Of a stretch of 44,609 nt of DNA, positions 13,937 to 30,404 are shown piece after piece (within the stretch, counting starts at the first letter, position 1; each line of letters opens with the position of its first letter). The stretch spans positions 1 through 44,609 of the forward strand of contig CANPZJ010000001.1 of assembly GCA_947588795.1 (NCBI GenBank), in the 5' to 3' direction. The notes under the pieces were generated by a model. That model was given only the letters and a program-made list of their open reading frames with translations, made no database searches and was not told the DNA's origin. Source of the DNA: an uncultured Bacilli bacterium. GTDB taxonomy: Bacteria > Bacillota_I > Bacilli_A > RF39 > UBA660. Position numbers and translations under genes: made by a program.

Positions 13937-14022
13937 ACCACATCATTTTTAGTATGGTTATATTTTAAAATTTCATTTACAAAATAAGTTATTTTTTTTA
14001 TAATTTAAAGAGAGGTAATGTT

Positions 14023-14508: not shown

Positions 14509-14515
14509 CTTCTTT

Positions 14516-14944: not shown

Positions 14945-15063
14945 TACCCTCTGAAATTAATACACTCTCTAATAAAGTTATAACATAATTTTTATTGTTT
15001 GAAAACAAAAAATCACTTAAATTTAAATATTGTTTTAAAATTTATTATACTCACTATTTTTGG

Positions 15064-15102
15064 GCAAAAAAATAGTACTCAATCTTTGAAAGATTAAGTA
15101 CT
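15064..15102 (-). terminator. Intrinsic terminator of the tRNA pair
   Basis: Minus strand reads AGTACTTAATCTTT-CAA-AGATTGAGTACT, a 14-bp stem with one mismatch. It is followed by ATTTTTTTG. Confidence 0.6.
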
Positions 15103-15193: not shown

Positions 15194-15278
15194 TGGTGCA
15201 CCTGAAGGGACTTGAACCCCCACGGATATTTCCACTAGATCCTAAGTCTAGCGCGTCTACCAGTTCCGCCACAGGTGC
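15194..15278 (-). tRNA. tRNA-Leu (anticodon UAG)
   Basis: Reverse complement is GCACCTGTGGCGGAACTGGTAGACGCGCTAGACTTAGGATCTAGTGGAAATATCCGTGGGGGTTCAAGTCCCTTCAGGTGCACCA. It has a long variable arm, a CTTAGGA anticodon loop and an encoded CCA. Confidence 0.9.
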
Positions 15279-15285: not shown

Positions 15286-15362
15286 TGGTGGACCTCGTAG
15301 GACTCGAACCTACGACCGCCCGGTTATGAGCCGGATGCTCTAACCAACTGAGCTAGAGGTCC
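15286..15362 (-). tRNA. tRNA with CAU anticodon (Met by anticodon; body resembles lysidine-type tRNA-Ile2)
   Basis: Reverse complement is GGACCTCTAGCTCAGTTGGTTAGAGCATCCGGCTCATAACCGGGCGGTCGTAGGTTCGAGTCCTACGAGGTCCACCA. It forms a cloverleaf with a CTCATAA loop and an encoded CCA. Confidence 0.9.
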
Positions 15363-15373: not shown

Positions 15374-15402
15374 ATTATACTATAATTGTAGTGAACTTGC
15401 AA
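15374..15402 (-). promoter_or_regulatory. Near-consensus promoter of the tRNA pair
   Basis: Minus strand reads TTGCAA(15397-15402)-17 nt-TATAAT(15374-15379), about 12 nt upstream of the tRNA 5' end. Confidence 0.7.
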
Positions 15403-15424: not shown

Positions 15425-15473
15425 TATGTTGTATTTTTGCAATTTCATTTTGTTTTTGCAAAAATACAACATA
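15425..15473 (-). terminator. Strong hairpin ending the 16-gene surface/lipoprotein block
   Basis: A perfect 17-18 bp inverted repeat: ATGTTGTATTTTTGCAA (15426-15442) pairs with TTGCAAAAATACAACAT (15456-15472), with a 13-nt loop. It lies 3' of the stop at 15492. On the minus strand, ATGCCATTTTGC follows. Confidence 0.6.
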
Positions 15474-15491
15474 ATAAACTTATTAGAACAT

Positions 15492-16343
15492 TTAACCAAT
15501 ATATTTTGAAACAGTAGTTTGATTACTTAATTCATTATCATTATTTACATTATAATTAGCATACTTTTTATCGCCTTGATATAAGCATAAACAATAATTA
15601 ATTGAACCACCATAACTTTCTAAATCACATTCTTTATATGTTCCACTTATTTTACTATTATCTTCTGTCAAAATAAGTTCAAATTCACCATTTTCTTTTA
15701 ATTCTATTGTACTAATCAAATCACTAGATGTTCCATTATCTTGCCACATTTCATATTTTCCAAATGATAATTTAAAATCACCAACAGAAATACTTTTATT
15801 ATTTTCATTTCCTATTTGGTTATCATCATTATCAAATTCAATAATTGGAACATCACTACTACCATAACTATTATCTTTTGTTTGTTCAAAGAAAATATAA
15901 ACTTTGGCATCTTCAAAATCATATAAATACATTTGCATTAAATCTTTATCTTTATAATTAATTAATTTTATCTCTAAATTTTTTTCTATATCATCAGTAT
16001 TATTAATATTTGTATCAGTTGTATCATAAAAACTAATAGTATTATTTTCATATTTATATTTACCACTTAAATTATAGTAACAGCCGATATTTAATTTAAA
16101 AGTATTATCATCATTAATTGTTAAAGAATTATCACTATCTTTTAGACAAGTTCCAAACAAAGAATTAAGATTGGTATAATTATCATTATTAGCTCTAACA
16201 TTAGTATTTAAATGCCAAATACCTAAAATGTTTTTAGAAGCATTATCATTATCCTTTTCTAATGTTTTACCACAACCTGTCATACTTAAAGTAATAATTG
16301 CTAACAATAAAATTGTTAATATTTTACTTTTATTATTCTTCAT
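15492..16343 (-). CDS. Lipoprotein, unknown function
   Basis: 283 aa. The signal peptide MKNNKSKILTILLLAIITLSMTGCGK contains a lipobox. Confidence 0.8.
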   Translation of the reverse strand: MKNNKSKILTILLLAIITLSMTGCGKTLEKDNDNASKNILGIWHLNTNVRANNDNYTNLNSLFGTCLKDSDNSLTINDDNTFKLNIGCYYNLSGKYKYENNTISFYDTTDTNINNTDDIEKNLEIKLINYKDKDLMQMYLYDFEDAKVYIFFEQTKDNSYGSSDVPIIEFDNDDNQIGNENNKSISVGDFKLSFGKYEMWQDNGTSSDLISTIELKENGEFELILTEDNSKISGTYKECDLESYGGSINYCLCLYQGDKKYANYNVNNDNELSNQTTVSKYIG

Positions 16344-16755
16344 TTAAAAGATCTTCTTTATAACTAGCAAGATAGCTTAAATATTGTTGGTATCCGCCTT
16401 CTTCATCACCATTTTTAAATTTGTAAACATTTGATAAGCAACCACCACAAGTTAATTTTTTATACCATCTAACTTCTATATCATTGCCCGTATTTTTATC
16501 TTTACCAGTTAATATTATAGCCCCACTTCCATCAGTAGCAATATAACTATCATCTTCACTCCATTTTTGATCTAAAACACAATAGTCTAAATATTCACCA
16601 ACTGTATGGCTTCCTAAAAGACCAATAGTGTGATTTCTTTGTTCAATCATGGCTTCCGTAAATTCAAATTTAGAATTACTTCCACCATTATTACCACAAC
16701 CCATTAAAGTTAAAGATAAAACCCCTATTAATAATATACTTAATATTTTTTTCAT
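16333..16755 (-). CDS. Lipoprotein, unknown function
   Basis: 140 aa. MKKILSILLIGVLSLTLMGCGNN contains a lipobox. It overlaps the next gene by 11 nt. Confidence 0.8.
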   Translation of the reverse strand: MKKILSILLIGVLSLTLMGCGNNGGSNSKFEFTEAMIEQRNHTIGLLGSHTVGEYLDYCVLDQKWSEDDSYIATDGSGAIILTGKDKNTGNDIEVRWYKKLTCGGCLSNVYKFKNGDEEGGYQQYLSYLASYKEDLLNEE

Positions 16756-16771
16756 AAATTAAAATTCCTTC

Positions 16772-17746
16772 CTATAAACTAAAATCCCCTATTATAGTGC
16801 CATCTTTTTTTGTAATAACTACTTCTTTACCTTCTTTAAAAAGATATACATCATCATAAATATAATAATTAGAATACTTAGGTTCCACTATTACTTTTTT
16901 ATTTTCAAGATCATACAATCCGGTTAAAAGATAACCTTCACTACTATTCTTCATAATAAATATAATTTTTGGATTATCTAAATCAAATTCATAATTATCA
17001 TATTCTCCAAGTTTAAAAACATAATTTCCGTTTGTATCAATAATGCCTTCGCCTTCATCCTTTGTTCTAACTTTGGCATATCCTAATTTGTTAAAATCAT
17101 ATACATAATCATACATCTTATCCCCAAAGACTTGTTCATGTGTTTCTTTATCAACAAAGAAATATTTTTCTTCATTACCTATCCATTTATAAGATGCTTC
17201 AACATCGAAAAGATCTTCTTCTTCAGGTTTTTCTACTTCATTACCATTTTTATCTATATAAATTGTTTCACCATATTCAGGCATGACACGAGCAACACCA
17301 TTATCAAAGCTACCACATTGATAGAAAGTTTTATCAAAAATATTTTTTCCTGTCTTATCGATGTATATGCATTCATTAATGCTACCCGTTAAAACTGCTG
17401 CAATTCCATCAACAAAATTACTTCTATAAAATGAATCATAAGTTCTTTTTTCTGGTGGTAATTCAAATTGTGGTTCAATAACATACTCGCCTTTATTATT
17501 GATATAACCCATTTTATTGTCCTTAAAAACTGCTGCTAGGTCTTCATAAAAACCATAAGCTGTATCATATTGTGATTCTATTACTATTTTTCCTTTAGCA
17601 TTAACATAGCCCCAAGTTGCACCAGTTTGAACAGGATATAAATCTCCATTATTATTAGATCCACCTTTAGAATCTTTACTTCCACATCCCGTTAAACTAA
17701 CTATTAAAACTCCAATTAATAATATACTTAATATTTTCTTCTTCAT
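16772..17746 (-). CDS. Lipoprotein with WG-containing beta-propeller-type repeats
   Basis: I prefer the start at MKKKILSILLIGVLIVSLTGCGS (17744-17746). WG-repeat signatures are TWGYVNAKGKIVIESQYD and KMGYINNKGEYVIEPQF. Confidence 0.8.
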   Translation of the reverse strand: MKKKILSILLIGVLIVSLTGCGSKDSKGGSNNNGDLYPVQTGATWGYVNAKGKIVIESQYDTAYGFYEDLAAVFKDNKMGYINNKGEYVIEPQFELPPEKRTYDSFYRSNFVDGIAAVLTGSINECIYIDKTGKNIFDKTFYQCGSFDNGVARVMPEYGETIYIDKNGNEVEKPEEEDLFDVEASYKWIGNEEKYFFVDKETHEQVFGDKMYDYVYDFNKLGYAKVRTKDEGEGIIDTNGNYVFKLGEYDNYEFDLDNPKIIFIMKNSSEGYLLTGLYDLENKKVIVEPKYSNYYIYDDVYLFKEGKEVVITKKDGTIIGDFSL

Positions 17747-17762
17747 ATTTACCTCAATCATC

Positions 17763-18095
17763 TTAATAAAAGAATGTCCATAAATTTTTAGCATTACATT
17801 TAGGGCATACTTTTTCTCTATTATCGGGATTATTTCTAATTGCTGCTACTACACCAATGTAAATTAAACCAGGAACAATACCCATTACTAAAAAGATAGC
17901 ACCTAAAACATAATCGATTGGTCTTAGTAATGGTCCGAGTACCCAATCGCCTTCATAACCACAACATGTGCATTTTGGCTTATCATGCTTTTTTTCTTTC
18001 TTTTCATCCTTTTCATCTTCTTTTACTTTTGCCCCACAATTAGCACAAAATTTCACATCTTCATCTAATTTACTTCCACATTCTTTGCAATACAT
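17763..18095 (-). CDS. Zinc-ribbon plus LITAF-like membrane-inserted zinc-knuckle protein
   Basis: Start is the ATG at 18093-18095, with AAGGAGAG 8 nt upstream. MYCKECGSKLDEDVKFCANCG is a zinc ribbon. Then comes CTCC, a 25-aa hydrophobic stretch (YVLGAIFLVMGIVPGLIYIGVVAAI) and CPKC, which is the LITAF/SIMPLE-like layout. Confidence 0.7.
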   Translation of the reverse strand: MYCKECGSKLDEDVKFCANCGAKVKEDEKDEKKEKKHDKPKCTCCGYEGDWVLGPLLRPIDYVLGAIFLVMGIVPGLIYIGVVAAIRNNPDNREKVCPKCNAKNLWTFFY

Positions 18096-18127
18096 TTTTA
18101 TCACTCTCCTTCAATTTTTATATATTG

Positions 18128-18649
18128 CTAATTTTCTTTTAATTCATAGATGTTTTTATATTCTTCTACGCCAATTTCACCTTTCATTGATTCAAAATTA
18201 ATTTTATTATTTTCTATATAACCAATATATTCTTCATCTATTTCATCATCATATGGCTCACCAAAACTAGTCATACCAGTACTTTTTGTATAATTAATAG
18301 TTATTTTATTACCTTCTATTTTATAAGTACCTGTTTTACTAGCTTCCCAATATTCATTATAATAAGATGCCTTATTATTTTCTAAAGTTATAGTTAAATT
18401 ATATCCTTCGGCTTCTGTTCCTTTAGTACCTGGATCTATTTCTATATATGTGCCTTCAGTAAAAGCAACCTTATTTTCATTAACATTTTCTTCCTTTGGT
18501 ATATCGTTTGTATTAGTATTAACATTATTTGTATTATTAGGTTCTTCCTTAGATAAGTTATTAGTACCACATCCAGTTAAGGCTATCATTAATATACCTA
18601 TAAGGAATATATTACATAATTTTTTTAATCTATTTATTTTAATATCCAT
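18128..18649 (-). CDS. Lipoprotein, unknown function
   Basis: 173 aa with the lipobox LIGILMIALTGCGTNN and an N-rich linker. Confidence 0.75.
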   Translation of the reverse strand: MDIKINRLKKLCNIFLIGILMIALTGCGTNNLSKEEPNNTNNVNTNTNDIPKEENVNENKVAFTEGTYIEIDPGTKGTEAEGYNLTITLENNKASYYNEYWEASKTGTYKIEGNKITINYTKSTGMTSFGEPYDDEIDEEYIGYIENNKINFESMKGEIGVEEYKNIYELKEN

Positions 18650-19665
18650 GGACTTGACTCACTCCCATCTCCACTAGATAATTCTATATTTGCTTTTAAG
18701 GTAACAATTGGTTTAATATTGCCATCAACTGAGTATTCAAAACTTTCACCTTTTGTATAAGCACCGTCACTACCTTTTAAATAAAGTTTATAAATATTTT
18801 CACTTATATATTTATAAGTATTTAATTTACTATCATAACTAAATCTAGGTAAATCATAATCTATATAATCAGAATTCCAATTTAAATCATGAGCAATTAA
18901 TGTTTCAACATCACCATAAAGCCATACAGCCCAACTATTATTAATTAAGCTTTTATAATTTTCATCAGTAATACAATCATTTAAACCATTATTCATTATA
19001 TAACTTCTATTAAAAGTTACTTCTTGATTATCTAATTTAATTGTATCCCCATAAGTATGACCAGTCATAGAACTATAATAAGTTTTACTAATACTATTTA
19101 AAACATCTTTCTTTGAACCACTTGTATCAATATTTTCATCTCTCGTGTATAAAGATGATTCAGCATCATATGTTTTTAAAAAATATTTTACGGTAGCATC
19201 TATATCTAGCATATTTTCTAAATCTTTTTTACTAATACTTCTACTTGATATAGCATAATTACTATTAGCATATATTTGCGCTATATTATTTAATTCACTT
19301 TTATAATTATCAACACCAATTTGGCCTTTAAAACGTAGACCTGAATCAATTATAGATTTAGCATAACCATCTAAAATTAAGTCAATTGTTCCATCATTAT
19401 TAAGGCTCATTACTCGCCATTTTTCTTCACCAGTTACTTCAAATGTTTGGTCTTTATCATAACCAGTTTTATTTTTAGTAGCTGTATATGATTTTCCTTT
19501 TTCGGCTTGATAATTAACATAATCACCTACTTTTATTTTCGATACTAAACTATTTTTAACAGGCTTATTATTAGTAGTTCCATTTGTAACAGTTTCACTA
19601 CCACATCCAGTTAAACTAATAAGTAAAACCCCAATTAATAATAAACTTAATATTTTCTTTTTCAT
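18634..19665 (-). CDS. Lipoprotein, unknown function
   Basis: 343 aa. MKKKILSLLLIGVLLISLTGCGSE contains a lipobox. Confidence 0.8.
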   Translation of the reverse strand: MKKKILSLLLIGVLLISLTGCGSETVTNGTTNNKPVKNSLVSKIKVGDYVNYQAEKGKSYTATKNKTGYDKDQTFEVTGEEKWRVMSLNNDGTIDLILDGYAKSIIDSGLRFKGQIGVDNYKSELNNIAQIYANSNYAISSRSISKKDLENMLDIDATVKYFLKTYDAESSLYTRDENIDTSGSKKDVLNSISKTYYSSMTGHTYGDTIKLDNQEVTFNRSYIMNNGLNDCITDENYKSLINNSWAVWLYGDVETLIAHDLNWNSDYIDYDLPRFSYDSKLNTYKYISENIYKLYLKGSDGAYTKGESFEYSVDGNIKPIVTLKANIELSSGDGSESSPWILK

Positions 19666-19672
19666 TATTTAC

Positions 19673-20419
19673 TCACTTTCTTTTTTGATAGAATTGTCCA
19701 CCATTACTATTAGCATATCCAGTACCAATTGAATTACCTTTTTTATCACGATACATTGTATTACCTAGATTATCTTTAACAGCATCACCAACAATGTTAC
19801 CTTTTTTATCCATAAATACTTGTGAATCATGCATTCCTTTAAAAGAAGAACCTATAACATTACCTTTAACATCTTCAAAAACTAAGCCACCGTTTAAACC
19901 AGCATAACTTCTGCCAATAACATTACCATTTTTATCTTGATAGATATATCCACCATTATCATTAGCATAACTATAAGCAACATCACCAAAATCCATACCA
20001 GTATTATTAGTTTCTAAAGATTCAAGACTAATATTAAAGATAAGTTTAATTAAGAATTTAAAGATTGGTAATAAATTAGTTAAGAAAATACTAACTAAAA
20101 TTGCTTCAATAATTCCACTTCCTCCAAATAAGGCAAAGATAAAATAAACTATATAATAACTTGCTTGTGATAAGAAATCAAAATAATCAGTATCACCAAT
20201 ATAACCTTTAGCTATTTTAAATTTAATTACAAATTTAGCAATAAAACGATATACAATAGGAAAGAAAGCACAGATAGGAAATAATACCATATTAGCATCA
20301 TTTTTAACAAATAATGTTGTAATAAATAAAAGTAACATACAGATAGGTCCTGCTACTAAACCATATATTACATAGAAAGAACTTTTTTTAATATTATCTA
20401 TTTTGAATAAATCACTCAT
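19673..20419 (-). CDS. Polytopic membrane protein with C-terminal 21-aa YD-like repeats
   Basis: 248 aa with about 4 N-terminal TM helices. The C-terminus has 4.5 repeats of xNGGxh(Y/F)xDxKGNxIGxS(Y/F)xG, for example GGYIYQDKNGNVIGRSYAG and NGGLVFEDVKGNVIGSSFKG. Confidence 0.75.
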   Translation of the reverse strand: MSDLFKIDNIKKSSFYVIYGLVAGPICMLLLFITTLFVKNDANMVLFPICAFFPIVYRFIAKFVIKFKIAKGYIGDTDYFDFLSQASYYIVYFIFALFGGSGIIEAILVSIFLTNLLPIFKFLIKLIFNISLESLETNNTGMDFGDVAYSYANDNGGYIYQDKNGNVIGRSYAGLNGGLVFEDVKGNVIGSSFKGMHDSQVFMDKKGNIVGDAVKDNLGNTMYRDKKGNSIGTGYANSNGGQFYQKRK

Positions 20420-20438
20420 TTTTTAAACACTCCTTTAA

Positions 20439-21401
20439 TTAACCTTGATACGTTACATCAGATCTAGTATCAGCAAAGCCATTATTTTTAAAGACTGAGA
20501 AATACTTATCATCTTGACCACTTATATGGAAAATAATATGATATCCTGAAACATATTCACCAAATTCCATACCAGAATATTTTTTTATTTCAAAAGTACA
20601 ATCAGTTGTATCTATCTTATAATCATTATCTTTATAACTACAAGTATTATCGGTATTTAAAGTAATATCGACAAAAGAATTTTTATACCTACCATATTTT
20701 AATGTATATTCGCCTGCAGTAATTACTTTACTTTCTTCTTCTTTAATTTTTGCTTTTACTTCTTCTACTTTTTTATCTGTTTCTTCTTTTATTTTATCAG
20801 TTACTTGATTTACTTCTTTATCTTCAACTAAATTATAAACAATATCTTTAGCTTTAGAAATATCCTCAACTTTTGCTTTAGATACTTCATCTATAAGAAC
20901 ATATTTTTTTTCAAATTCTGATTTTGTGAAATTTTTAGTAACACCATTTCCATAAGCATCTTCAACAAATAAATCAATTAATCTAATTTCTATTTTGCCA
21001 TCTTCTAATTCACGATAAAATATCCACTCATATTTTTCATCTGCAATATTATATAAAAGTTTTAAATCAAAACCATTATCACGGTAAACACTAAACTTAT
21101 AATCAGAATTTTCATCAAGATATACTGTTCCAATAGCACCATCTGGACTATCTCCTTCAGCATCTGATCCTTGTCCTAATAAAACCATAATAGGTTCAAC
21201 AAAGGCATCTAATTTAATAAAGGCAACTTCAAAATCTTTTTGCTCTGTAAACAAACTATGATCGCCCGAAATATATTCAGCATACTTCTCTTCCCAATCT
21301 TCTTTTAAGAAGGTTTCTTTTTTATTAGTATTATTGTTTCCACAGCCTATTAAAGTTAAAGATAAAATACTAATTAATAATATACTTAACACTTTTTTCA
21401 T
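20439..21401 (-). CDS. Lipoprotein, unknown function
   Basis: I prefer the start at MKKVLSILLISILSLTLIGCGNN (ATG 21399-21401, AAGGAG 11 nt upstream). There is a K/E-rich coiled segment mid-protein. Confidence 0.8.
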   Translation of the reverse strand: MKKVLSILLISILSLTLIGCGNNNTNKKETFLKEDWEEKYAEYISGDHSLFTEQKDFEVAFIKLDAFVEPIMVLLGQGSDAEGDSPDGAIGTVYLDENSDYKFSVYRDNGFDLKLLYNIADEKYEWIFYRELEDGKIEIRLIDLFVEDAYGNGVTKNFTKSEFEKKYVLIDEVSKAKVEDISKAKDIVYNLVEDKEVNQVTDKIKEETDKKVEEVKAKIKEEESKVITAGEYTLKYGRYKNSFVDITLNTDNTCSYKDNDYKIDTTDCTFEIKKYSGMEFGEYVSGYHIIFHISGQDDKYFSVFKNNGFADTRSDVTYQG

Positions 21402-21420
21402 AAACTCACACACTCCTTAA

Positions 21421-22677
21421 TTATATTTTTTTATTTAATTGTCTATAACTAATAATTATACAGCTTATACTAATTAGTATAAGTGATATAAATACATTTA
21501 TATCATCGCCTGTTTGAGGTGGTATTAAATCATTAGTATTAACTACTTCATTTTTATCTACTTTATCACTAGTAGGAATAGTTTTATCGCCAATATATTT
21601 AGCATTAATAGTAAATCCGCTATTATCACCAATAACTTCATATTCATAATCTTTGGTATCATCTAATTTTAAATTATATTCTATTTGTTCTTTTCCAAAA
21701 GAATATTTAATATTTTTAAATAATTCTAAATCAGTTTGCCATTTATCTAAAGTTATTTCTTCTTCTACTTCATCATATTGATTAATTGTTTTAATTAATA
21801 ATTTACTAGGCCTTTTCTGATAAATATTATTATCATCTAACCAATTAACCTTTATAGGTACTTTTATTCTCTCTGCTTTATGATTTATAGTATATATAAT
21901 ATTACCATCTTCATCGGCTTCAACTGTATATGTATAGGTATCATCGGTTAAATTTTTAACTTCGTCTAAAATACCATATTCATATTCTATTTTATTTAAT
22001 TCATTATCAGTTACATCAGTAACTAAATATTTAACTAATTCCATTATATAACTATATTCATCTACTTTTAATTTTACTGTACCACCGACACTATAATAGG
22101 TATCTATTGTATTTATTCCTTTCATATAGAAATAAATATAACGATAATTATCACGACCATTATCATCATTAAATATTTCTTTTACAGGAATATCTCTAGA
22201 TACATCTTTAACTAATGTTATTTCTAAAACATTGGCATCAAAATTACTACAATATGTAGGAGTAACACAGCCAAGTTGACCCTGCTCAAAAATATCAATG
22301 CCTTTTATGTAACTTCTTGGTAAGTTAAAATCTACCGAACTATCAAATTCAAATTTTAAATTTATATTAGTAGAATTGAAAGGAAAAGATATATTAAATG
22401 TCCAATAAGTATAGATACCATTTTCAGTTATTTGAGCATCTTTCTTGTTTAAAGTTAATTCATACTGTACCGTTTTAGTTTTACCACCACTCCAAACTTC
22501 TGCTTTTAAAGGTATTGTAATTTCATCAGGGCGCATATTAAGTTTATTATGAGCATCAACCCACTTTATTACTACTTTGCCACCATAATCAAAATTCCCT
22601 ATCATTATTGCTTTTGTCACTAGTGGAAATAGAAATAAACAAATTAATACAAATATAAAATTTTTTATTTTTTTCAT
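21421..22677 (-). CDS. Cell-wall-anchored protein with CnaB-type domains and a PPQTG sorting signal
   Basis: 418 aa with signal peptide MKKIKNFIFVLICLFLFPLVTKA. CnaB-like segments are KWVDAHNKLNMRPDEITIPL and VNWLDDNNIYQKRPSKLLIK...IEYNL...YEYEV. The tail is IPPQTGDDINVFISLILISISCIIISYRQLNKKI. Confidence 0.85.
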   Translation of the reverse strand: MKKIKNFIFVLICLFLFPLVTKAIMIGNFDYGGKVVIKWVDAHNKLNMRPDEITIPLKAEVWSGGKTKTVQYELTLNKKDAQITENGIYTYWTFNISFPFNSTNINLKFEFDSSVDFNLPRSYIKGIDIFEQGQLGCVTPTYCSNFDANVLEITLVKDVSRDIPVKEIFNDDNGRDNYRYIYFYMKGINTIDTYYSVGGTVKLKVDEYSYIMELVKYLVTDVTDNELNKIEYEYGILDEVKNLTDDTYTYTVEADEDGNIIYTINHKAERIKVPIKVNWLDDNNIYQKRPSKLLIKTINQYDEVEEEITLDKWQTDLELFKNIKYSFGKEQIEYNLKLDDTKDYEYEVIGDNSGFTINAKYIGDKTIPTSDKVDKNEVVNTNDLIPPQTGDDINVFISLILISISCIIISYRQLNKKI

Positions 22678-23627
22678 TTTTTCAATCCTTTCTTCTCTTT
22701 TTTACTATTTTTCTTCTTTTTATTTTTAATAACTATTATAATTACTACACTTATTAATATTACTAAACCTATAATTGGTATTAAATAGTAATTAGACCAT
22801 TTAAATTTTTGAACATTTTGTTTTTCTTTAACTTCTGGTTTATTTTCTTCTTTTATTTCTTCTACTTCTTCTTCATCTCTGGTAATATTTAAGATATAAG
22901 ATGATTCTGATTTATCTTCGGCAGTTACTTTTATAGTAATTATATTTTCACCTACATTTAATTCATAATCTTTTAAACCATCTACTTTAGCTTTACTAGA
23001 ATCAGTTTTACCACTTATCGTAATATTACTAGTTTCATATGGTACATTTAAAATATAAAAATAATTATCTTTAGTAAAATCGAAATCAACACCTTCAATA
23101 GTTAAACTTTTTAAATTACTATTATTTGATTTTTTAGTTGTTGTGATAGTTGTACTTGCTGAACTAGAAGAATTACTAGCAGTTTTAGGTTCCGTTATAT
23201 AGATAAAACCAATTAAGTAAAGATCACTTGCTTCGCCTGAACCAATACCTTTACTTCTATTTCCTTCAGTTTTACCTTCACCACTACCTTTATTTTCAAC
23301 CACATGCATCGTTTCATCATCTACTGATACAACAAAAGCAACATGACCATAACCTTGAAAGCCGGAATAAACCGCAATTGAATTAGGTCTTGCTTCACTT
23401 CCTACTTGATAGCCGGCATTTGCAGCATTTCGATACCAATCAACGGCATTACCCCAACCAGGAAGAGCAATACCAAGTCGATCATAAGCTTCTTGCCAAG
23501 CAACTCTAGTACATGGAGTACTAACTACACCATTAAAAGTTTGAGTTCTAGGATATGGATTAGATGCAGCATAACTTATAATAGGAATTAATAACAAAAA
23601 CAATATTATAAATAATCTTTTTTTCAT
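22674..23627 (-). CDS. Secreted CHAP-domain peptidoglycan hydrolase with cadherin-like beta-sandwich domain and C-terminal TM anchor
   Basis: 317 aa. CHAP Cys/His motifs are STPCTRVAWQ, WGNAVDWY and GYGHVAFV. The SNLKSLTIEGVDFDF...ITIKVTAEDKSESSYILNITR module follows. The C-terminus is a TM plus a K-rich tail. ATGA overlap with the downstream gene. Confidence 0.85.
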   Translation of the reverse strand: MKKRLFIILFLLLIPIISYAASNPYPRTQTFNGVVSTPCTRVAWQEAYDRLGIALPGWGNAVDWYRNAANAGYQVGSEARPNSIAVYSGFQGYGHVAFVVSVDDETMHVVENKGSGEGKTEGNRSKGIGSGEASDLYLIGFIYITEPKTASNSSSSASTTITTTKKSNNSNLKSLTIEGVDFDFTKDNYFYILNVPYETSNITISGKTDSSKAKVDGLKDYELNVGENIITIKVTAEDKSESSYILNITRDEEEVEEIKEENKPEVKEKQNVQKFKWSNYYLIPIIGLVILISVVIIIVIKNKKKKNSKKEKKGLKK

Positions 23628-23630
23628 ACA

Positions 23631-24653
23631 TTACCACCGATCACAAACTAAATTATATTCTTCACATAATTTTTCGGATAAAAGACCTGCTTCATATTTA
23701 CCATAAACACCATAACCAGGAAATACTACTTTAATAGAGCCACTTAAAGCACTAGAAATCTCAGAATCTAAACCATCTCTTACACTTTTCATTCCATTAT
23801 ATAAAGTTGTAAATGGTGTTTTACTAACAGTTATATATTCATATTTATAATCAACACTATGATTTTCACTATAATTTTGAAATTGACTACCAACAATTGG
23901 TGTAAATTTAACTCCCTTATATGTTTTATTTTTAATATTATTTAATATTGTTTTAGCATTATTTTCTTTGGCTGTATCAAATTGTAATTTATCAAAAGCT
24001 GCATACCATTCATCTATTCGTAAATCTAGTCCTTGACTAGCAGGATCTTCATCTTCCCAAGAAAGTTCTATACGACTTTTACCAGCAAGACTTGGAAAAA
24101 CATCACCTAAATTTGTAATAAAATAATAACCAGTAGGTTGGGTATAATTTTCGTAATCAATAGATGTTGTCATATTTTCATTTAAATTTATTTTATCAAT
24201 AGTTGAAGTATATTTAGTACTATTACTACTAGATGTATTTTTGCTACTACTAGAACTACTTGTTGAAGATTTATCTTCTTCTTTTTTCCAAGTAGCTGTT
24301 AATGTTATATTTTCATTTATTTCTGTTTGAAAATCAAAATCTTCTTCGTTTATTTTCCAACTTACAAATTCATAACCAGTTCTTTTGGGATCTTCTGGTT
24401 TAGTTATTTTTTCTCCCTTTTTAACAGTAATACTTTCTACAACAGATCCACCATTAGGATTAAAAGTAACTTTATATTCTTCTACTTCTTCTGTTTGTTT
24501 ATCTTTTTCCTTTTCTTCTATTTTTGGTGTATTATCATTATTATTTTTCTTACTATTTAAGTAAAGAATTGTACATGTGGTACCAATAGCAGCTAAAATT
24601 AAAATAATAATAACAGTTATTATAAATTTTTTATTTTTAAATAATTTTTTCAT
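23631..24653 (-). CDS. Membrane-anchored protein with Listeria-Bacteroides (Flg_new) repeat
   Basis: N-terminal TM (the track start at 24668 is also possible). YKVTFNPNGGSVVESITVKKGEKITKPEDPKRTGYEFVSWK matches the repeat. The C-terminal domain is unknown. Confidence 0.8.
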   Translation of the reverse strand: MKKLFKNKKFIITVIIILILAAIGTTCTILYLNSKKNNNDNTPKIEEKEKDKQTEEVEEYKVTFNPNGGSVVESITVKKGEKITKPEDPKRTGYEFVSWKINEEDFDFQTEINENITLTATWKKEEDKSSTSSSSSSKNTSSSNSTKYTSTIDKINLNENMTTSIDYENYTQPTGYYFITNLGDVFPSLAGKSRIELSWEDEDPASQGLDLRIDEWYAAFDKLQFDTAKENNAKTILNNIKNKTYKGVKFTPIVGSQFQNYSENHSVDYKYEYITVSKTPFTTLYNGMKSVRDGLDSEISSALSGSIKVVFPGYGVYGKYEAGLLSEKLCEEYNLVCDRW

Positions 24654-24718
24654 ATATATCACATCCATTTTTTTTGTATTGTTTTAAATAATTCTTTCAT
24701 TACATCATCTTTTAAATT

Positions 24719-25960
24719 TTATTTTTCAAATAATATAGAATAAAAATATTCATTATTAAACTTAGAAATTCCTATACCTATCTTAGTAAATTTTTCATTA
24801 AAAATATTTTGACAATCCACATCACCATAATCACAATAAAAAACTAGTGACTTATAAACTTGTTGCATGTCTTTTCCACCTCTAGAAGAAGACTCTGACA
24901 TAACGCTACCATGTTCTATTCCTAAATCATCTAAAACTGTAGTATAATATTTACCATTTGGTCTATCATGGTTATAATCATTCATATATCCTACTTCCAT
25001 TGCTCTTATAGAAGCTCCTAAAGATAAACTATTATCTAATTTATATTCATATAGACTATTAGCTTTTCTATTTTCATTAATAATATTAAATAATTGATTT
25101 ATTTCTTGTTTATAAGTTGTCAAATTACTACTTGCTTCACTACGCATTTCTTTAGCGTCATCCCTAAATTTAGATGGGTCATAATAAGTTTGCCTAGAAT
25201 CTTCAATTTTTTCTTCTGTTCCATCTTTTCTAGTAGTAATTTTATACTTTACAATCGTATATTGTTCTATTCCATATTTATATTCTTTTCTATCAATCTC
25301 TTCTTCTTCATATTTAGTTGCTGTATCAGTTGTTGTTGAATTATTATTAGTAGTAGTATTCTTATTTGTGGTATTAGTTGTTTTTTTCTTATTAACTTTT
25401 AAAGTAAAATTTTCTTCTGTTTTATTATTACTACTATCATTAGCAACATATTTTAATTTATAAGTTCCTTCTTTATTAAAATCATATTCACCTTCAACTA
25501 TTACTTCTATTTTTTCTTTTGAATTATCACTAGCTTTAACTTTTTTTAATAAATTTATTTTAGTTCCCACAGTTGTACTTAATTCTTTAGAAAATTCTAT
25601 TATTGGCTTAGTTGTATCGACTATATTTATTTTAAAAGGATATTCTTTTTCTTCTTCATTTTCTAAATATTTAACAATTAATTCTTTTTCTCCTAAAGAA
25701 GTAGTATCTATTTTATCATCAATATTTATAATTTCGATATCATTATTTTCTTCTAACAAATCTGTAATTTTTACTTCACTATTAATTTCAACATTTAAAT
25801 TTTCTTTTAATTTAATAACTATTTTTTCTTGTTTATTATCTTCTACCTTTTGTTTATCTTTAGAATTATTAAATAAATTAACCCCTAGTACAACAACCGT
25901 CGTTAATCCTAAAACTCCTAAAATTATTCCACTAATTATTTTAATCATTTTTTCTTTCAT
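24719..25960 (-). CDS. Membrane-anchored protein: Ig-like (DUF5011-type) domain plus degenerate CAP/SCP-like domain
   Basis: 413 aa with AGAGAGG upstream of the ATG. DTTKPIIEF...GTYKLKYVANDSSNNKTEENFTLKV is the Ig-like module. The C-terminal INENRKAN...NHDRPNG...IGIGIS resembles YkwD/CAP. Domain calls are tentative. Confidence 0.75.
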   Translation of the reverse strand: MKEKMIKIISGIILGVLGLTTVVVLGVNLFNNSKDKQKVEDNKQEKIVIKLKENLNVEINSEVKITDLLEENNDIEIINIDDKIDTTSLGEKELIVKYLENEEEKEYPFKINIVDTTKPIIEFSKELSTTVGTKINLLKKVKASDNSKEKIEVIVEGEYDFNKEGTYKLKYVANDSSNNKTEENFTLKVNKKKTTNTTNKNTTTNNNSTTTDTATKYEEEEIDRKEYKYGIEQYTIVKYKITTRKDGTEEKIEDSRQTYYDPSKFRDDAKEMRSEASSNLTTYKQEINQLFNIINENRKANSLYEYKLDNSLSLGASIRAMEVGYMNDYNHDRPNGKYYTTVLDDLGIEHGSVMSESSSRGGKDMQQVYKSLVFYCDYGDVDCQNIFNEKFTKIGIGISKFNNEYFYSILFEK

Positions 25961-26018
25961 AAATAAACCTCTCTTTTAATTATATTAAATCGTTATTTAA
26001 TTTAATAATACATAGTAT

Positions 26019-26783
26019 TTAGTCACTTATTTTCTTGGCCACTACAACAAAGCGACCATTTTCTCTTGAATATTCACAAGTTGATAAAGTAATTAATTTA
26101 TCACCATATTTGGCATCTACTCCAGTATCAAATTTTGATGCCTTTTTGGCATTACTGACAAAATCATTATATGCTTCTTCACTTTCGGCATTAACAAAAT
26201 AATAATAACGAAAAACATTAGTCTCATTTGAATAATATACTCTACTATAGAATATTGCTAATATTTCATAAGTAGCATCTTCTTCTAAAGTAGTTAAATT
26301 AATCGTTTTATGTTCTTCATAAAAATCTTTTTTCGCATATTTAATTAATGGTTCAAACATTAAACCATATTTATTTCGATGACCATATATTTGTAAATTA
26401 TCACTTTCATTTATTTTGACATCTTTATCAAAATAAATGGCTCCCGCTGATGATTTTTCATTTTTATAATTATGGTTTAAATAATAGTCATTATCCGTTG
26501 TTTCTACTACTGGATAATTAATATCTGTTCCTTCTATTTCTAACCAAGCTACGACATTTTCATAACTTTTATGTAACTCTTTTAATTTATTAATTTTTTG
26601 TTCATGAATATCTTCTTTTTGATCTATATCATGAAATATATTAGATACATCTTTGTAAGTATTTTTATCATTACTTGCATTAGTTAATTCTACTACTATA
26701 TATGATATGCCTAGAATTATAATTAGTAACAATATAATAATTATAATAATTTTTATCGGTTTTTTGAGTTTTCTCTTATGCAT
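26019..26783 (-). CDS. srtB: Class B sortase
   Basis: 254 aa with an N-terminal TM. Motifs are VAWLEIEGTDINYPVVETTDNDYYLNH, IYGHRNKYGLMFEPLIKY, the catalytic LITLSTCEY and a downstream RFVVVAK. Confidence 0.9.
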   Translation of the reverse strand: MHKRKLKKPIKIIIIIILLLIIILGISYIVVELTNASNDKNTYKDVSNIFHDIDQKEDIHEQKINKLKELHKSYENVVAWLEIEGTDINYPVVETTDNDYYLNHNYKNEKSSAGAIYFDKDVKINESDNLQIYGHRNKYGLMFEPLIKYAKKDFYEEHKTINLTTLEEDATYEILAIFYSRVYYSNETNVFRYYYFVNAESEEAYNDFVSNAKKASKFDTGVDAKYGDKLITLSTCEYSRENGRFVVVAKKISD

Positions 26784-26796
26784 AATATTCCTCTAT

Positions 26797-26833
26797 CTAA
26801 AAAGTAGAATTAAGTTTTAAACTTAATTCTACT
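26797..26833 (-). terminator. Hairpin plus T5 between the third TPxLG paralog and srtB (partial terminator/attenuator?)
   Basis: AGTAGAATTAAGTT pairs with AACTTAATTCTACT (26803-26833), a 13-14 bp perfect AT-rich stem. TTTTTAG follows on the minus strand. The srtB SD (AGAGGAA) begins about 12 nt later. Confidence 0.5.
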
Positions 26834-26844
26834 AACTATCTATC

Positions 26845-27285
26845 TTAGTCTTTCTTTAAAACTTTGATTAAACATACACCGGCACATAATACAAGTAAAC
26901 TAGCTAGTCCAATATAACTTGGTACTCCTAAAGTTGGTGTACTATCAGCTTTAACATTGCTTAAGGCAATTACAAATGGTGATAATTCATCTACTTCTAC
27001 TGTTACTTTACCATCTATTATTTCTTTTTCAAAAGTTTCTATTGTACCATTACTTTTTTTATGAAGTACTGTCGCCTTTTCTCCATTATATTTACTATCT
27101 ACATTAAATGATACATTTAATTTTCCTTCATAATCACCATTTAATTTTACTTCATATGATCCAAGTACTTTTTTACCTTCTAATTTTTGATTTAACTCTT
27201 TATAAACATCAGAATTTGTATCTAATTTTTCAACTGCTAAAGTACTATCAATATCTTTTTTACCAACAACTGCTACACCATTATT
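26845..27285 (-). repeat. ~440-bp conserved 3' module, copy 3 of 3 (direct repeat)
   Basis: About 90% nucleotide identity by eye with 27900-28340 and 29171-29611. Boundaries are approximate. Confidence 0.7.
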
Positions 27286-27882
27286 AGTATCTTCTACACT
27301 AGTTTCATTTAAGACATATTTCCTTGTTAATGAAATTCTATAGACTTCTGTTCCTTCAGCATCATAACCAATGTATTCACCAGTACTTTCAGGTTTTAAC
27401 GCAAAGCTTTGTTCATCATAAACATTATTAACATTATAATGTTCTTTTACATCACCATACTCTGCATGATAATAAATTAATGGTGTATTACCACCAAAAC
27501 CATCAGGAAATTCATCTTTATCATATGTTACATCACCAGACACAACTCTGACAACATCATCTATAAACATCTTATGATTAAGATTGAATGTAATACTATT
27601 CTCACCAAATTCTTTTTTAAATTTATCAAATAATTCGTTACCAGCATAAATTGTTTTACCATCTATTAAAGCCTTATATACATCATAATCATTTATCTTG
27701 ATTAATAAAGTATTATCTTCAATAGAATAATCAAATACATTTCCTTTATAATTATCACTTGCCCATTCAAAATCCAATAAAGTTTTACCATCAACCTCAA
27801 GAGCTTTAACACTAGGTGTTACTACTACAAGCATTGCTAGCATAAAAATAGGAAATATTAATTTTTTTAAAATATTTTTCAT
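26845..27882 (-). CDS. Secreted surface protein, TPxLG-tail family, paralog C
   Basis: 345 aa with signal peptide MKNILKKLIFPIFMLAMLVVVTPSVKA. The variable N-terminal domain is followed by a conserved 146-aa C-terminus ending VDELSPFVIALSNVKADSTPTLGVPSYIGLASLLVLCAGVCLIKVLKKD. Confidence 0.9.
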   Translation of the reverse strand: MKNILKKLIFPIFMLAMLVVVTPSVKALEVDGKTLLDFEWASDNYKGNVFDYSIEDNTLLIKINDYDVYKALIDGKTIYAGNELFDKFKKEFGENSITFNLNHKMFIDDVVRVVSGDVTYDKDEFPDGFGGNTPLIYYHAEYGDVKEHYNVNNVYDEQSFALKPESTGEYIGYDAEGTEVYRISLTRKYVLNETSVEDTNNGVAVVGKKDIDSTLAVEKLDTNSDVYKELNQKLEGKKVLGSYEVKLNGDYEGKLNVSFNVDSKYNGEKATVLHKKSNGTIETFEKEIIDGKVTVEVDELSPFVIALSNVKADSTPTLGVPSYIGLASLLVLCAGVCLIKVLKKD

Positions 27883-27899
27883 AATTATCTTCTCCTAAA

Positions 27900-28340
27900 T
27901 TAGTCTTTCTTTAAAACTTTAATTAAGCATACACCAGCGCATAATACAAGTAAGCTTGCTAGTCCTACATAACTTGGTACTCCTAAGATTGGTGTACCAT
28001 CGGCTTTGACATTACTTAGGGCAATTACAAATGGTGATAATTCATCTACTTCTACTGTTACTTTGCCATCTGTTATTACTTTTTCAAATGTTTCAACTGT
28101 ACCATTACTTTTCTTATGTAATACTGTTGCTTTTTGGCCATTATATTTACTATCTACATTAAATGATACATTTAATTTTCCTTCATAACTACCATTTAAT
28201 TTCACTTCAAAAGCTCCAAGAACTTTTTTACCTTCTAATCTTTCATTTAATTCTTTATAAATATCTGCATTTGTATCTAACTTTTCGACTGTTAATGAAG
28301 AATCATTATCAATTGCACCACTAACACTAACATTTTTTTC
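27900..28340 (-). repeat. ~440-bp conserved 3' module, copy 2 of 3
   Basis: See 26845-27285. Confidence 0.7.
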
Positions 28341-29159
28341 TTCATTAGTAACAGTCGTACCAGCATATTCCATTCTTATTTTTAAAGTTGTATAACCACT
28401 ATTATCTCTTTCACGAACAATTCCAGTATCAGCCCATAAATAAGCATCTGTTTCTTTATAATTTCTAATCAAAAATTCAGAATTTATATAAGATGCAATT
28501 GGTGCTCCAACAGGAAAACCTGATCTCCAACTATTATTTTCTTCATCATAAGCAAATAAAATTCCAGAATAATCTAAATAAACAAAATTACCTTTACTAT
28601 CTTGACTATGAAAATCATCATCAACACTATATGATCTAGTTCCTGATTGATAAGTCACTAAGTCATCTGTGATTGGTGCTATAGTTATGTCTTTTATATC
28701 ATCTTGAAAATATATTTTAATCATTAGGCTAACAACTCCATCATTTACATATGGCACTAATTTTTGCCATAATTCTGGAGTTTCTTTTTCAGTTATATCT
28801 TTTTTATTCACTATTGCTTTATATAAATCATAATCTTTTACTTTAACTACAATCTCGTTATTTGCATAAGTAAAATCAAATATATTATTTTGATGAGCAA
28901 CATTATAACCAACTGTAATATAATCTTCAGGTTTTAATTCTGTATTACCTTTATATATCGGATAAATAAGTTCACCTTGATAATTTTCGTGATCTTCAGA
29001 TTCCTTATATTTTTCATATTCTTCATTAAACTTTTTATAACTTTCTAAAACTTTATCTTTATCAGTAAACATTTCTGTTTTCATTTCTGCCATAGTTACT
29101 ACTGGTAATAACATAATAGCAAATACTATAGCAAAACATATTTTATTAATTTTTTTCAT
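27900..29159 (-). CDS. Secreted surface protein, TPxLG-tail family, paralog B
   Basis: 419 aa with a signal peptide ending VTMA. The conserved C-terminus ends ...NVKADGTPILGVPSYVGLASLLVLCAGVCLIKVLKKD. Confidence 0.9.
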   Translation of the reverse strand: MKKINKICFAIVFAIMLLPVVTMAEMKTEMFTDKDKVLESYKKFNEEYEKYKESEDHENYQGELIYPIYKGNTELKPEDYITVGYNVAHQNNIFDFTYANNEIVVKVKDYDLYKAIVNKKDITEKETPELWQKLVPYVNDGVVSLMIKIYFQDDIKDITIAPITDDLVTYQSGTRSYSVDDDFHSQDSKGNFVYLDYSGILFAYDEENNSWRSGFPVGAPIASYINSEFLIRNYKETDAYLWADTGIVRERDNSGYTTLKIRMEYAGTTVTNEEKNVSVSGAIDNDSSLTVEKLDTNADIYKELNERLEGKKVLGAFEVKLNGSYEGKLNVSFNVDSKYNGQKATVLHKKSNGTVETFEKVITDGKVTVEVDELSPFVIALSNVKADGTPILGVPSYVGLASLLVLCAGVCLIKVLKKD

Positions 29160-29170
29160 AGCTTTTTCTC

Positions 29171-29611
29171 CTAATCTTTCTTTAAAACTTTAATTAAACA
29201 TACACTGGCACATAACACAAGTAAACTAGCTAGTCCTACATAGCTTGGTACTCCTAAAGTTGGTGTACTATCTTCTTTGACATCACTTAATGCAATTACA
29301 AATGGTGATAATTCATCTACTTCTACTGTTACTTTACCATCTGTTATTACCTTTTCAAATGTTTCAATTGTACCATTACTTTTCTTATGAAGTACTGTTG
29401 CCTTTTCTCCATTGTATTTACTATCTACATTAAATGATACATTTAATTTTCCTTCATATTCACCATTTAATTTTACTTCAAAGGCTCCAAGTAATTTTTT
29501 GCCTTCTAATCTTCCTACTAATTCTTTATATACATCTGCTTTTGTATCTAACTTTTCTACTGTTAAAGTAGTATCCATATTTTTTTTACCTGTAACTGAT
29601 ACACCATTATT
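29171..29611 (-). repeat. ~440-bp conserved 3' module, copy 1 of 3
   Basis: See 26845-27285. Confidence 0.7.
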
Positions 29612-30355
29612 TTCATCTGCTACACTTGATTCACCAAGTTCATAACTAAATTTTATTTTAGAAGTAAATACTTCATTGCCATTTGCATCAAGGCCAACAA
29701 ACTTATAAGTATAGCCCCAGTTGTAATCCCATTCTCCGCTCTTTTGTAATGGTGTCCAAACAACAGTCGTTTTACCATCAACAGAATCATACCAGGCATC
29801 AAATAAAACACCAGCTCTATCGGAATCATAATAATATTTACCATTTTCATCTTGTTTAATATTTATACCACCATTTAAATCAAAAACACCATTATCTTCT
29901 TCTTTGCCATCTTGGTTATATAATAAAAATGAAATTTTTGTAACATTATCAGGAAAATAAATATGCGGATGTAACCCTAGTGTCCCTTGAACTTCGGTTC
30001 TATCTTCATCTTCAATTGGAATTTCTTTTAAATATTTAGATAATTTATTATAAAGTGGTGTTCCTTCTCTTATTAAAGTATCAGTTTTTGAATCAGAGCC
30101 ATTAATACTTTCTTGCCAAGTTTTGTCTACTAACACTAGCTCATTGTAAAGATCAATATCTTTAACTTTTAACACTACTTCACCATTTTCATAAGTATAA
30201 TCAAATACTTCGCCTAATCCTTGATATGGTATTAAAGTAATAAATTCCTTTGAGTCAATTTCCTCTGCTCTAACCATTGTTGGTACCATAAATAACATCA
30301 TTGTTAAACATAATATTGTTGAAAATATACTTGTTAATTTTTTCAATTTTCTCAT
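29171..30355 (-). CDS. Secreted surface protein, TPxLG-tail family, paralog A (first gene of the block)
   Basis: 394 aa with a signal peptide ending MVRA. The conserved C-terminus ends ...DVKEDSTPTLGVPSYVGLASLLVLCASVCLIKVLKKD. GGAG sits only 1 nt from the ATG at 30355, so the in-frame TTG at 30344-30346 (MKKLTS...) is an alternative start. Confidence 0.85.
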   Translation of the reverse strand: MRKLKKLTSIFSTILCLTMMLFMVPTMVRAEEIDSKEFITLIPYQGLGEVFDYTYENGEVVLKVKDIDLYNELVLVDKTWQESINGSDSKTDTLIREGTPLYNKLSKYLKEIPIEDEDRTEVQGTLGLHPHIYFPDNVTKISFLLYNQDGKEEDNGVFDLNGGINIKQDENGKYYYDSDRAGVLFDAWYDSVDGKTTVVWTPLQKSGEWDYNWGYTYKFVGLDANGNEVFTSKIKFSYELGESSVADENNGVSVTGKKNMDTTLTVEKLDTKADVYKELVGRLEGKKLLGAFEVKLNGEYEGKLNVSFNVDSKYNGEKATVLHKKSNGTIETFEKVITDGKVTVEVDELSPFVIALSDVKEDSTPTLGVPSYVGLASLLVLCASVCLIKVLKKD

Positions 30356-30374
30356 TCTCCATTTCTATAAGATT

Positions 30375-30404
30375 ATTATAATATACCCCCCCCGAAAAAA
30401 TCAA
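30375..30404 (-). promoter_or_regulatory. Promoter with a G8 tract in the spacer, heading the TPxLG/sortase block
   Basis: Minus strand reads TTGATT(30399-30404)-TTTTC-G8(30386-30393)-TATAT-TATAAT(30375-30380), an 18-nt spacer. The core TTC-G(n)-TATA is shared with the three promoters at 1323-4592. Confidence 0.55.

Follow-up and report, generated by a model that had tools for sequence, protein, structure and literature searches.

Here, we describe a block of 16 surface-protein genes that occupies positions 15,425 to 30,404 of a 44,609-nucleotide stretch of contig CANPZJ010000001.1 (hereafter the window). The host is a low-GC (~26%), spore-forming, uncultured lineage of rabbit-gut Bacilli. 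The block is probably best understood as a mosaic surface-protein island with a sortase-B operon as its core. This operon is probably phase-variable and encodes head-variable substrates with a derived TPxLG sorting signal, while the remaining genes are exchangeable cargo. The functional core has four elements, namely a G8 sigma-70-type promoter, three paralogous genes (g01 to g03), a terminator-like hairpin and a class B sortase gene (srtB). Functions of promoters and terminators are inferred from sequence only. The elements of the core are located as follows:

30375..30404, minus strand: leader promoter TTGATT-18-TATAAT with a G8 tract in its spacer
30386-30393, minus strand: the G8 tract of the leader promoter (TTGATT-ttttc-G8-tatat-TATAAT), before g01
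29171..30355, minus strand: g01, paralog A, 394 amino acids, TPTLG tail
27900..29159, minus strand: g02, paralog B, 419 amino acids, TPILG tail
26845..27882, minus strand: g03, paralog C, 345 amino acids, TPTLG tail
26803..26833, minus strand: terminator-like hairpin of 14 bp followed by TTTTT
26019..26783, minus strand: srtB, class B sortase (TIGR03064), 254 amino acids, N-terminal transmembrane anchor

All 16 open reading frames (ORFs) of the block are on the minus strand and follow one another head-to-tail between 30355 and 15492. The largest intergenic gap is the 61 nt between g03 and srtB, and ORFs overlap at g07/g08 (4 nt), g11/g12 (16 nt) and g15/g16 (11 nt); an apparent 32-nt overlap of g13 and g14 vanishes when g14 is started at the methionine of MKKKILSILL. 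Each of the 16 products has a signal peptide, lipobox, anchor or transmembrane (TM) segment and at least one hydrophobic segment. The preliminary description of the window had reported this single-orientation run and the export or membrane location of all products, and both are borne out. One orientation, short gaps, several overlaps and uniform envelope targeting are also what could suggest that all 16 genes form one obligate co-functional envelope machine or organelle, expressed as a single transcription unit.

The relatives argue against such a machine. We mapped the window proteins onto 19 loci. The relatives, about 15 related loci, all come from metagenome-assembled genomes (MAGs) of uncultured gut bacteria, and the one constant element among them is the order paralog(s), hairpin, srtB. 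Most of these MAGs are labelled 'uncultured Bacilli' and stem from rabbit ('Lapin') gut; a Clostridia MAG and one labelled 'Tenericutes' contain the distant relatives. Two loci, L003 and L007, are syntenic with the window. What is always kept is a run of one to three paralogs followed directly by srtB (L003/7, L004, L006/17-19, L008, L009, L010, L011 and L016), and the paralog-srtB pair is also found in L012, L013 and L014, where sortase identity is 50%, 30% and 27%, respectively. The sole paralog that stands alone (L001/L005) comes from a MAG in which another contig, L011, contains the paralog-srtB pair. Genes for Flg_new and CHAP proteins are frequent neighbours of srtB, and Ig/CAP, CnaB and g09-g16 occur in differing combinations. 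L004 has the order srtB-Ig/CAP-Flg_new-CHAP-g16-x-CAP, followed by housekeeping genes, the L006-type loci have srtB-Flg_new-CHAP-CnaB-g09, L008 has srtB-Flg_new-CHAP, two zinc-ribbon membrane proteins and g09-g11-g12-g14-g15, and in L009 srtB-Ig/CAP is followed by unrelated genes. The Ig/CAP gene (g05) is thus present in L004 and L009 and absent from L006 and L008, and the CnaB gene (g08) occurs only in the window and the L006-type loci. At least seven arrangements exist among loci whose shared genes are 80-97% identical. Close relatives (80-97% amino-acid identity in shared genes) lack different subsets of the genes, swap CnaB for zinc-ribbon membrane proteins, insert genes, or end the island after CHAP and g16. 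Furthermore, in L006/L017-19 and L008, the loci without Ig/CAP, a TTGACT-N10-G8-TATAAT promoter lies between srtB and Flg_new, and hence the downstream part would be independently transcribed in those relatives.

Since the downstream gene content is mosaic across loci, the 16 genes are not a co-inherited unit. The preliminary description had treated them as one; the co-occurrence check finds them largely scattered in relatives, and only the paralog or paralogs plus srtB are universal. The comparative data therefore largely refute the single machine, which we consider very improbable. Tight same-strand packing of envelope genes does not amount to a system, and caution is advised when such blocks are interpreted. 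Two loci contain transposase genes, one of IS3 type in L003 (13269-13883, minus strand), which follows srtB and replaces the last SrtB residues, and one of the DDE_Tnp_1 family in L016 (675-2483, minus strand), upstream of the paralog-srtB core. These insertion sequence (IS) elements fit the mosaic structure and would explain some contig breaks. Downstream of the sortase cluster in L013 (13787-18663) we also observed five tandem, near-identical paralogs of about 315 amino acids (MHEQDYFNEI...YITSFKLLNN).

The three paralogs of the core share one architecture: a signal peptide, a variable head, a constant pre-anchor domain of about 110 amino acids, the motif TP(T/I)LG-VPSY, a TM segment and the terminal sequence KVLKKD. 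In the alignment the heads have diverged (about 30-50% identity) and the C-terminal ~150 amino acids are nearly invariant. Across their final ~420 nt the three genes share 85-97% DNA identity, similarity collapses upstream, and synonymous and non-synonymous codon differences in this 3' region are about equal in number. This combination suggests that the 3' cassette is under concerted evolution.

The paralog family itself is small, with 16 matches among 5.8 billion proteins in a word-indexed search. A HMMER scan with the C-terminal 150 amino acids retrieved 713 clusters (50% representatives) at E <= 1e-3 and 232 at E <= 1e-10. Sequences P0017-P0159 represent this pre-anchor family, with window positions 29174-29623 as the type copy. 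The domain is always placed C-terminally, in proteins of 108-2058 amino acids whose N-termini include glucosaminidase, BspA-type leucine-rich repeat (LRR), RCC1, Flg_new and CBM_X2 domains. In nearly all cases no other globular domain stands between it and an xPxTG-type SrtB signal, and a few copies precede dockerin-like repeats. Pfam gave no match over the domain in ten diverse members or in the window copy, where NCBIfam gave none either. The AlphaFold2 models are confident and show beta-sandwiches, with a predicted local distance difference test score (pLDDT) of 82 for whole g01 and 88.8 for the domain. A fold search of whole g01 against the Protein Data Bank (PDB) found generic Ig-like sandwiches only (template-modelling score <= 0.16). 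With the domain alone, nothing fell below E = 0.01, and neither a pilin nor a CnaB structure was matched. This pre-anchor domain is a general module ahead of SrtB-type anchors and is not pilin-specific. It constitutes a sizeable unannotated family that marks SrtB-anchored proteins of gut Firmicutes and deserves a profile model.

The sortase is of class B, as the preliminary description had stated: it scores 174.5 bits against TIGR03064 (cutoff 153.75) and matches Pfam Sortase at 2.9e-15. Its TM segment begins at residue 4, and the triad of His135, Cys236 and Arg is intact; the motifs YGH135R, TLSTC236 and GRFVVV are conserved in six homologues and align with B. anthracis SrtB. The best PDB matches are B. 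anthracis SrtB (1rz2, 4e-31), which is an NPKTG enzyme, Lmo2181, the C. perfringens enzyme 5b23 and the SrtB proteins of S. aureus and C. difficile. No class C model was among its six NCBIfam matches. An exact-protein look-up of SrtB returned no record, probably owing to a differing called start.

The preliminary description had compared the block to loci for pilus or fibre assembly. In such a locus the three paralogs would be pilins polymerised by a class B sortase, as in the FCT pili of S. pyogenes, with the CnaB protein as minor or basal subunit and the CHAP protein opening the wall. Three tandem paralogs next to a sortase, a CnaB protein, a wall hydrolase and the invariant VLHKK lysine pair in the constant domain would suit this idea, and pilin polymerases with a class B fold do exist. 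However, one of these, Spy0129 (3psq), is the weakest of the 15 PDB matches of SrtB (2.4e-16), and the nearest sortases are housekeeping-type SrtBs. Neither a class C sortase nor a second sortase is encoded in any locus. The paralog number varies from one to three, with one standing alone in L001, and CnaB is absent from most relatives. The constant domain is found on hundreds of non-pilins (glucosaminidase, LRR, RCC1 and CBM proteins, and proteins of up to 2058 amino acids), and its confident model lacks any pilin-like match in the PDB, just as Pfam finds no pilin domain in the paralogs. We therefore consider the pilus reading of the preliminary description improbable.

The putative sorting signal of the paralogs is unusual. 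The three TPxLG tails noted earlier are confirmed, and each is part of a tripartite C-terminus in which the motif is followed by the hydrophobic helix YVGLASLLVLCAGVCLI and the basic tail KVLKKD. We took as a sorting signal a pentapeptide in which P3 is Pro, P1 is Thr or, rarely, Ser, and P1' is Gly, Asn or Ser. A canonical xPxT[G/N/S] motif with TM segment and basic tail is present in 112 of 159 family sequences. PKTG is the commonest motif (56 of the 159), usually as [DE]x[TE]PKTG, which corresponds to the C. difficile-type signal; SrtB of C. difficile recognises (S/P)PxTG and NVQTG (PMC4155245, PMC5118464, PMC5569036). TP(T/I)LG(V/I)PSY occurs in 15 of the 159 sequences, all close relatives of the window paralogs. 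Compared to TPKTG, it keeps Thr at P4, Pro at P3 and Gly at P1', and has Leu at P1. At the homologous tail position, relatives have SPKTG (L012), NAQTS or VPKTS (L013, L014) and, in most of the family, TPKTG-type motifs; hence, TPxLG sits exactly in the slot of the SrtB motif. A search of JGI metagenome contigs with the degenerate DNA pattern TP[TI]LG[VI][PA]SY... gave no match, which fits a very narrow distribution of the tail. The PPQTG protein g08 and three NPKTG proteins on the same contig have fully canonical signals.

Several observations weigh against TPxLG as a working signal. We know of no characterised sortase signal in which Leu replaces Thr beside the scissile bond. The last 24 amino acids are 85% identical within the TPxLG group and 14% in the rest of the family, so that TM helix and tail are conserved far beyond what is usual for a discarded sorting peptide; close relatedness accounts for part of this. 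The canonical NPKTG and PPQTG proteins could be the sole true clients of the sortase. An alignment of TPxLG-linked with PKTG- or AQTS-linked sortases revealed no clear specificity-determining difference, and no obvious difference in the specificity loop separates them from the SPKTG-linked enzyme of L012. TPxLG might accordingly be a degenerate signal that is no longer cleaved. The paralogs would then stay C-terminally membrane-anchored, SrtB would serve only the NPKTG and PPQTG proteins, and the paralog-srtB adjacency would be inherited from an ancestor with a PKTG-type signal. The loss of an otherwise universal Thr, a near-invariant helix and tail as expected for a retained, functional helix (0.85 versus 0.14 identity), at least four canonical substrates on the contig and a sortase lacking distinctive change all speak for it. 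Nonetheless, T-P-x-L-G is invariant in 17 of 17 clade members. These include P0017 and P0018, which have only 46-52% domain identity and in which the tail typical of the TPxLG group is nonetheless largely preserved, and invariance down to this distance argues for selection on the motif. In addition, the adjacency to srtB, with only the hairpin between, persists at every clade locus, and no drifted copies were found in the JGI metagenome scan. We regard a degenerate signal as unlikely, but as the main rival reading.

A derived signal that is still cleaved by SrtB is the reading we prefer. A more far-reaching version of it can be put forward only tentatively: TPxLG would be a new Leu-P1 signal read by a dedicated SrtB branch, the pre-anchor domain would be a general module for SrtB-substrate recognition or wall spanning across Firmicutes, and enzyme and substrates would be jointly phase-varied by the poly-G promoter. 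If TPxLG is cleaved by this SrtB, the specificity range of sortases extends to a P1 residue other than Thr, which bears on sortase engineering and would be relevant to the prediction of surface proteomes from genomes.

The preliminary description had placed a G-tract promoter at the head of the block, and the G8 at 30386-30393 indeed lies inside TTGATT-18-TATAAT. The 44.6 kb contain four runs of G>=7, where 0.31 are expected, and none of 100 shuffles reached four. All four are on the coding strand of the following gene and within promoter spacers of genes for sortase substrates. The other three precede a tandem of genes at the start of the contig:

1-1263, minus strand: gene for an NPKTG surface protein (ENPKTGDN), cut by the contig end
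1447-3018, minus strand: gene for an NPKTG surface protein (ENPKTGDN)
3199-4497, minus strand: gene for an NPKTG surface protein (ENPKTGDN)
1329-1337 (G9), 3084-3090 (G7) and 4569-4576 (G8), minus strand: G tracts before the NPKTG genes

The three encoded proteins have a TM segment after ENPKTGDN. The promoters of the three genes read TTGACT-N10-G9/G7/G8-TATACT/TATCCT, with spacers of 19, 17 and 18 nt, and promoters, 5' untranslated regions and signal peptides are near-identical. The tandem thus resembles a set of related sortase substrates, each phase-variable on its own. The same C-G(n)-TATA module precedes the first paralogs in L003 (G9), L006 (G8), L009 (G8) and L015 (G7), Flg_new in L006 and L008, and four surface-protein genes in the distant L013 (G9, G9, G6 and G9). 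Among orthologs of g01, the tract is G8 in the window, G7 in L015 and G9 in L003, and across all tract-length variants the spacers measure 16-19 nt, straddling the 17-nt optimum. Slipped-strand contingency promoters are characterised by just such differences in tract length between near-identical promoters, with spacers on both sides of the optimum (PMC5084427, PMC6389960, PMC1891110), and the four poly-G tracts hence suggest putative slipped-strand phase variation. In L015, two tracts separated by 70 nt, G8 (1569-1576) and then G7 (1646-1652), lie ahead of an ortholog of g01 with 93% identity and may belong to two tandem tract-containing promoters.

Two points count against a switch of the entire operon by this promoter. 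One locus was recovered in three samples (L017-19), and both of its promoters read G8 in each, so that no length polymorphism was seen within that lineage. Moreover, internal promoters may exist in DNA that is so AT-rich. A scan with the sigma-70 consensus found 135 sites where 144 were expected, and since hits are no more frequent than in shuffled DNA, such a scan is uninformative here and unable to exclude internal promoters. If the poly-G promoters act as proposed, uncultured low-GC gut Bacilli would vary their wall-anchored surface proteins as mycoplasmas and Neisseria do, which would bear on evasion of host immunity and phages in the gut.

The hairpin between g03 and srtB (-15.5 kcal/mol) is a putative partial terminator or mRNA-stabilising stem. 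Only about 15 nt, containing a GAGG Shine-Dalgarno sequence, separate its T-run from the srtB ATG. In close relatives the hairpin is identical and hence uninformative, but in the divergent L011, L012 and L013 a hairpin with T-run and unrelated stem sequence stands at the same position. L011, for example, has the order NPKTG, NPKTG, TPTLG, hairpin, srtB. Retention of the position with different stems fits partial termination and read-through that set the ratio of substrate to sortase, and thus lends support to the stoichiometry role that had been put forward earlier.

Taken together, a sortase-B core with exchangeable cargo might work in the following way. A slipped-strand change in G-tract length would alter the spacing between -35 and -10, and thereby switch or tune the whole operon. 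Most transcripts would stop or be stabilised at the hairpin and yield much substrate, and a minor fraction would read through into srtB and the downstream genes and yield little enzyme. SrtB would cleave TPxLG, a lineage-specific derivative of a TPKTG-type signal, and link the paralogs to peptidoglycan; it would probably also process the NPKTG proteins and g08, the CnaB protein with the PPQTG signal. The genes that follow srtB, from Ig/CAP through the TM proteins, would be accessory surface cassettes that ride on the same direction of transcription and can be exchanged. Common cassettes at the 3' end (stalk and anchor) and the 5' end (lipoprotein signal peptide) would favour recombination and variation in copy number.

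The genes downstream of srtB in the window are:

24719..25960, minus strand: g05, N-terminally anchored Ig-like and CAP protein (Pfam)
23631..24668, minus strand: g06, N-terminally anchored Flg_new (Listeria-Bacteroides repeat) protein (Pfam)
22674..23627, minus strand: g07, secreted CHAP peptidoglycan hydrolase with a Cadherin-like domain and a C-terminal TM segment (Pfam, NCBIfam)
21421..22677, minus strand: g08, CnaB-domain protein with a canonical SrtB-type PPQTG sorting signal
15492..21413, minus strand: the variable cassette region g09-g16, comprising the following eight genes
20439-21413, minus strand: g09, lipoprotein
19673-20419, minus strand: g10, 4-TM repeat protein
18634-19665, minus strand: g11, lipoprotein
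18128-18649, minus strand: g12, lipoprotein
17763-18104, minus strand: g13, zinc-ribbon TM protein
16772-17794, minus strand: g14, lipoprotein with WG repeats (WG_beta_rep)
16333-16755, minus strand: g15, lipoprotein
15492-16343, minus strand: g16, lipoprotein

Most labels of the preliminary description stand. Pfam and NCBIfam agree with the Ig/CAP, Listeria-Bacteroides-repeat and CHAP assignments, the CnaB match of the PPQTG protein g08 is confirmed though marginal (23.3 bits, cutoff 22.3), and the six lipoproteins have their lipoboxes (g09, g11, g12, g14, g15 and g16). For g13 the zinc ribbon was recovered and the 'LITAF-like' part of the label was not, and the 'YD-like' label of g10 falls; neither has Pfam support even at E <= 10. 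In four lipoproteins (g09, g11, g14 and g15), unrelated mature parts are preceded by almost identical signal peptides, MKK(K)ILS(I/L)LLIGVL..SLTGCG, a shared 5' cassette that mirrors the common 3' cassette of the paralog triplet.

The block is chromosomal. Its flanks are housekeeping genes, with mraZ-mraW and a penicillin-binding protein gene at 4.8-8.6 kb and SpoIIP, PfkB, Smr, MiaA and TmcAL at 32-39 kb, and GC is about 26% throughout, alike in block and flanks. The borders carry these features:

30538..31500, minus strand: up320, 5-TM protein directly upstream of the leader promoter
15425..15473, minus strand: hairpin 3' of g16, 18 perfect bp, 13-nt loop, no T-run
15374-15402, minus strand: tRNA promoter match TTGCAA-17-TATAAT
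15286-15362, minus strand: tRNA-Met (CAT), Rfam
15194-15278, minus strand: tRNA-Leu (TAG), Rfam
15074-15102, minus strand: canonical terminator, downstream of both tRNAs

The gene up320 is missing from the syntenic L003, has a copy of 95% identity in L006 and is part of the variable island. At the other end, the strong terminator that had been claimed exists as an 18-bp perfect hairpin (-20.2 kcal/mol, z = -4.5). Owing to its 13-nt loop and the missing T-run it is not a canonical terminator, and one of that kind follows only after the tRNAs. The two tRNA genes, overlooked in the preliminary description, adjoin the block end on the same strand and mark where the surface island gives way to a very AT-rich region; an Rfam scan found these two tRNAs only, and no riboswitch or leader. 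We considered and rejected an origin as a mobile element or integrative and conjugative element (ICE): there is no integrase, relaxase or type IV secretion system gene, GC is like that of the flanks, and megablast of the whole block against plasmids gave no match. The plasticity is accounted for by the IS elements and tRNA genes at the borders, without the block being an ICE. The region from 8800 to 15000, between mraZ and the tRNAs, has the lowest GC of the contig (21-22%) and may be a defence or variable islet. It encodes an Abi_2 (abortive-infection-like) protein (8867-10384), a truncated deacetylase-like ORF (12799-13200) and a small deaminase with a weak match to anti-phage dCTP deaminase (14023-14508).

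A cluster of a sortase and its substrates is of a known kind. As in sortase-dependent pilus islands, tandem surface paralogs accompany a sortase, with a CnaB-domain protein bearing an LPXTG-like signal nearby. Those islands use a class C sortase, or a class-B-fold polymerase in S. pyogenes, and CnaA/CnaB pilins, whereas the window lacks a class C sortase, its paralogs have no pilin-like fold and vary in number, and CnaB is optional. The likeness to SrtB clusters extends further. B. anthracis SrtB/IsdC (NPKTG), S. aureus SrtB/IsdC (NPQTN) and C. difficile SrtB ((S/P)PxTG) also have adjacent substrates with tripartite signals, and the window SrtB shares with them the triad and the N-terminal anchor, with NPKTG and PPQTG proteins on its contig (PMC4155245, PMC5118464). 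In contrast to these clusters, the window has no Isd/NEAT haem-uptake context. Its adjacent substrates are one to three head-variable paralogs that carry TP(T/I)LG-VPSY, with Leu for Thr, and a near-invariant TM tail, a hairpin stands before srtB and a poly-G promoter leads the operon. Curated pairs of a sortase and a variant signal include TIGR03065, the QVPTGV-class SrtB signal. In the pairs of NF040525, 'class B sortase, LPKTxAVK-specific' (NCBIfam), a SrtB likewise lies beside targets with a shared, conserved non-canonical signal. The window sortase, however, reaches only 59.5 bits against that model (cutoff 200), and no NCBIfam or Pfam model matches the TPxLG tail or the pre-anchor domain.

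Phase variation through a tract in a promoter spacer is known from the vlp genes of Mycoplasma hyorhinis, where the tract is poly-A. Neisseria and Bordetella provide further examples, in which homopolymeric promoter tracts underlie the phase variation (PMC5084427, PMC6389960, PMC1891110). In porA, opc and nspA of N. meningitidis and in fim of B. pertussis the homopolymer lies between -35 and -10 of surface-protein genes, as it does in the window, and paralogous and orthologous promoters of the window type likewise differ in tract length. In contrast to these systems, the tract here is poly-G in a Gram-positive gut lineage of 26% GC, and would control sortase substrates and perhaps, through transcripts that read past the hairpin, the sortase as well. 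What is new compared to the known sortase-substrate clusters is the putative TPxLG signal, the unannotated pre-anchor family and a lineage-wide poly-G promoter design.

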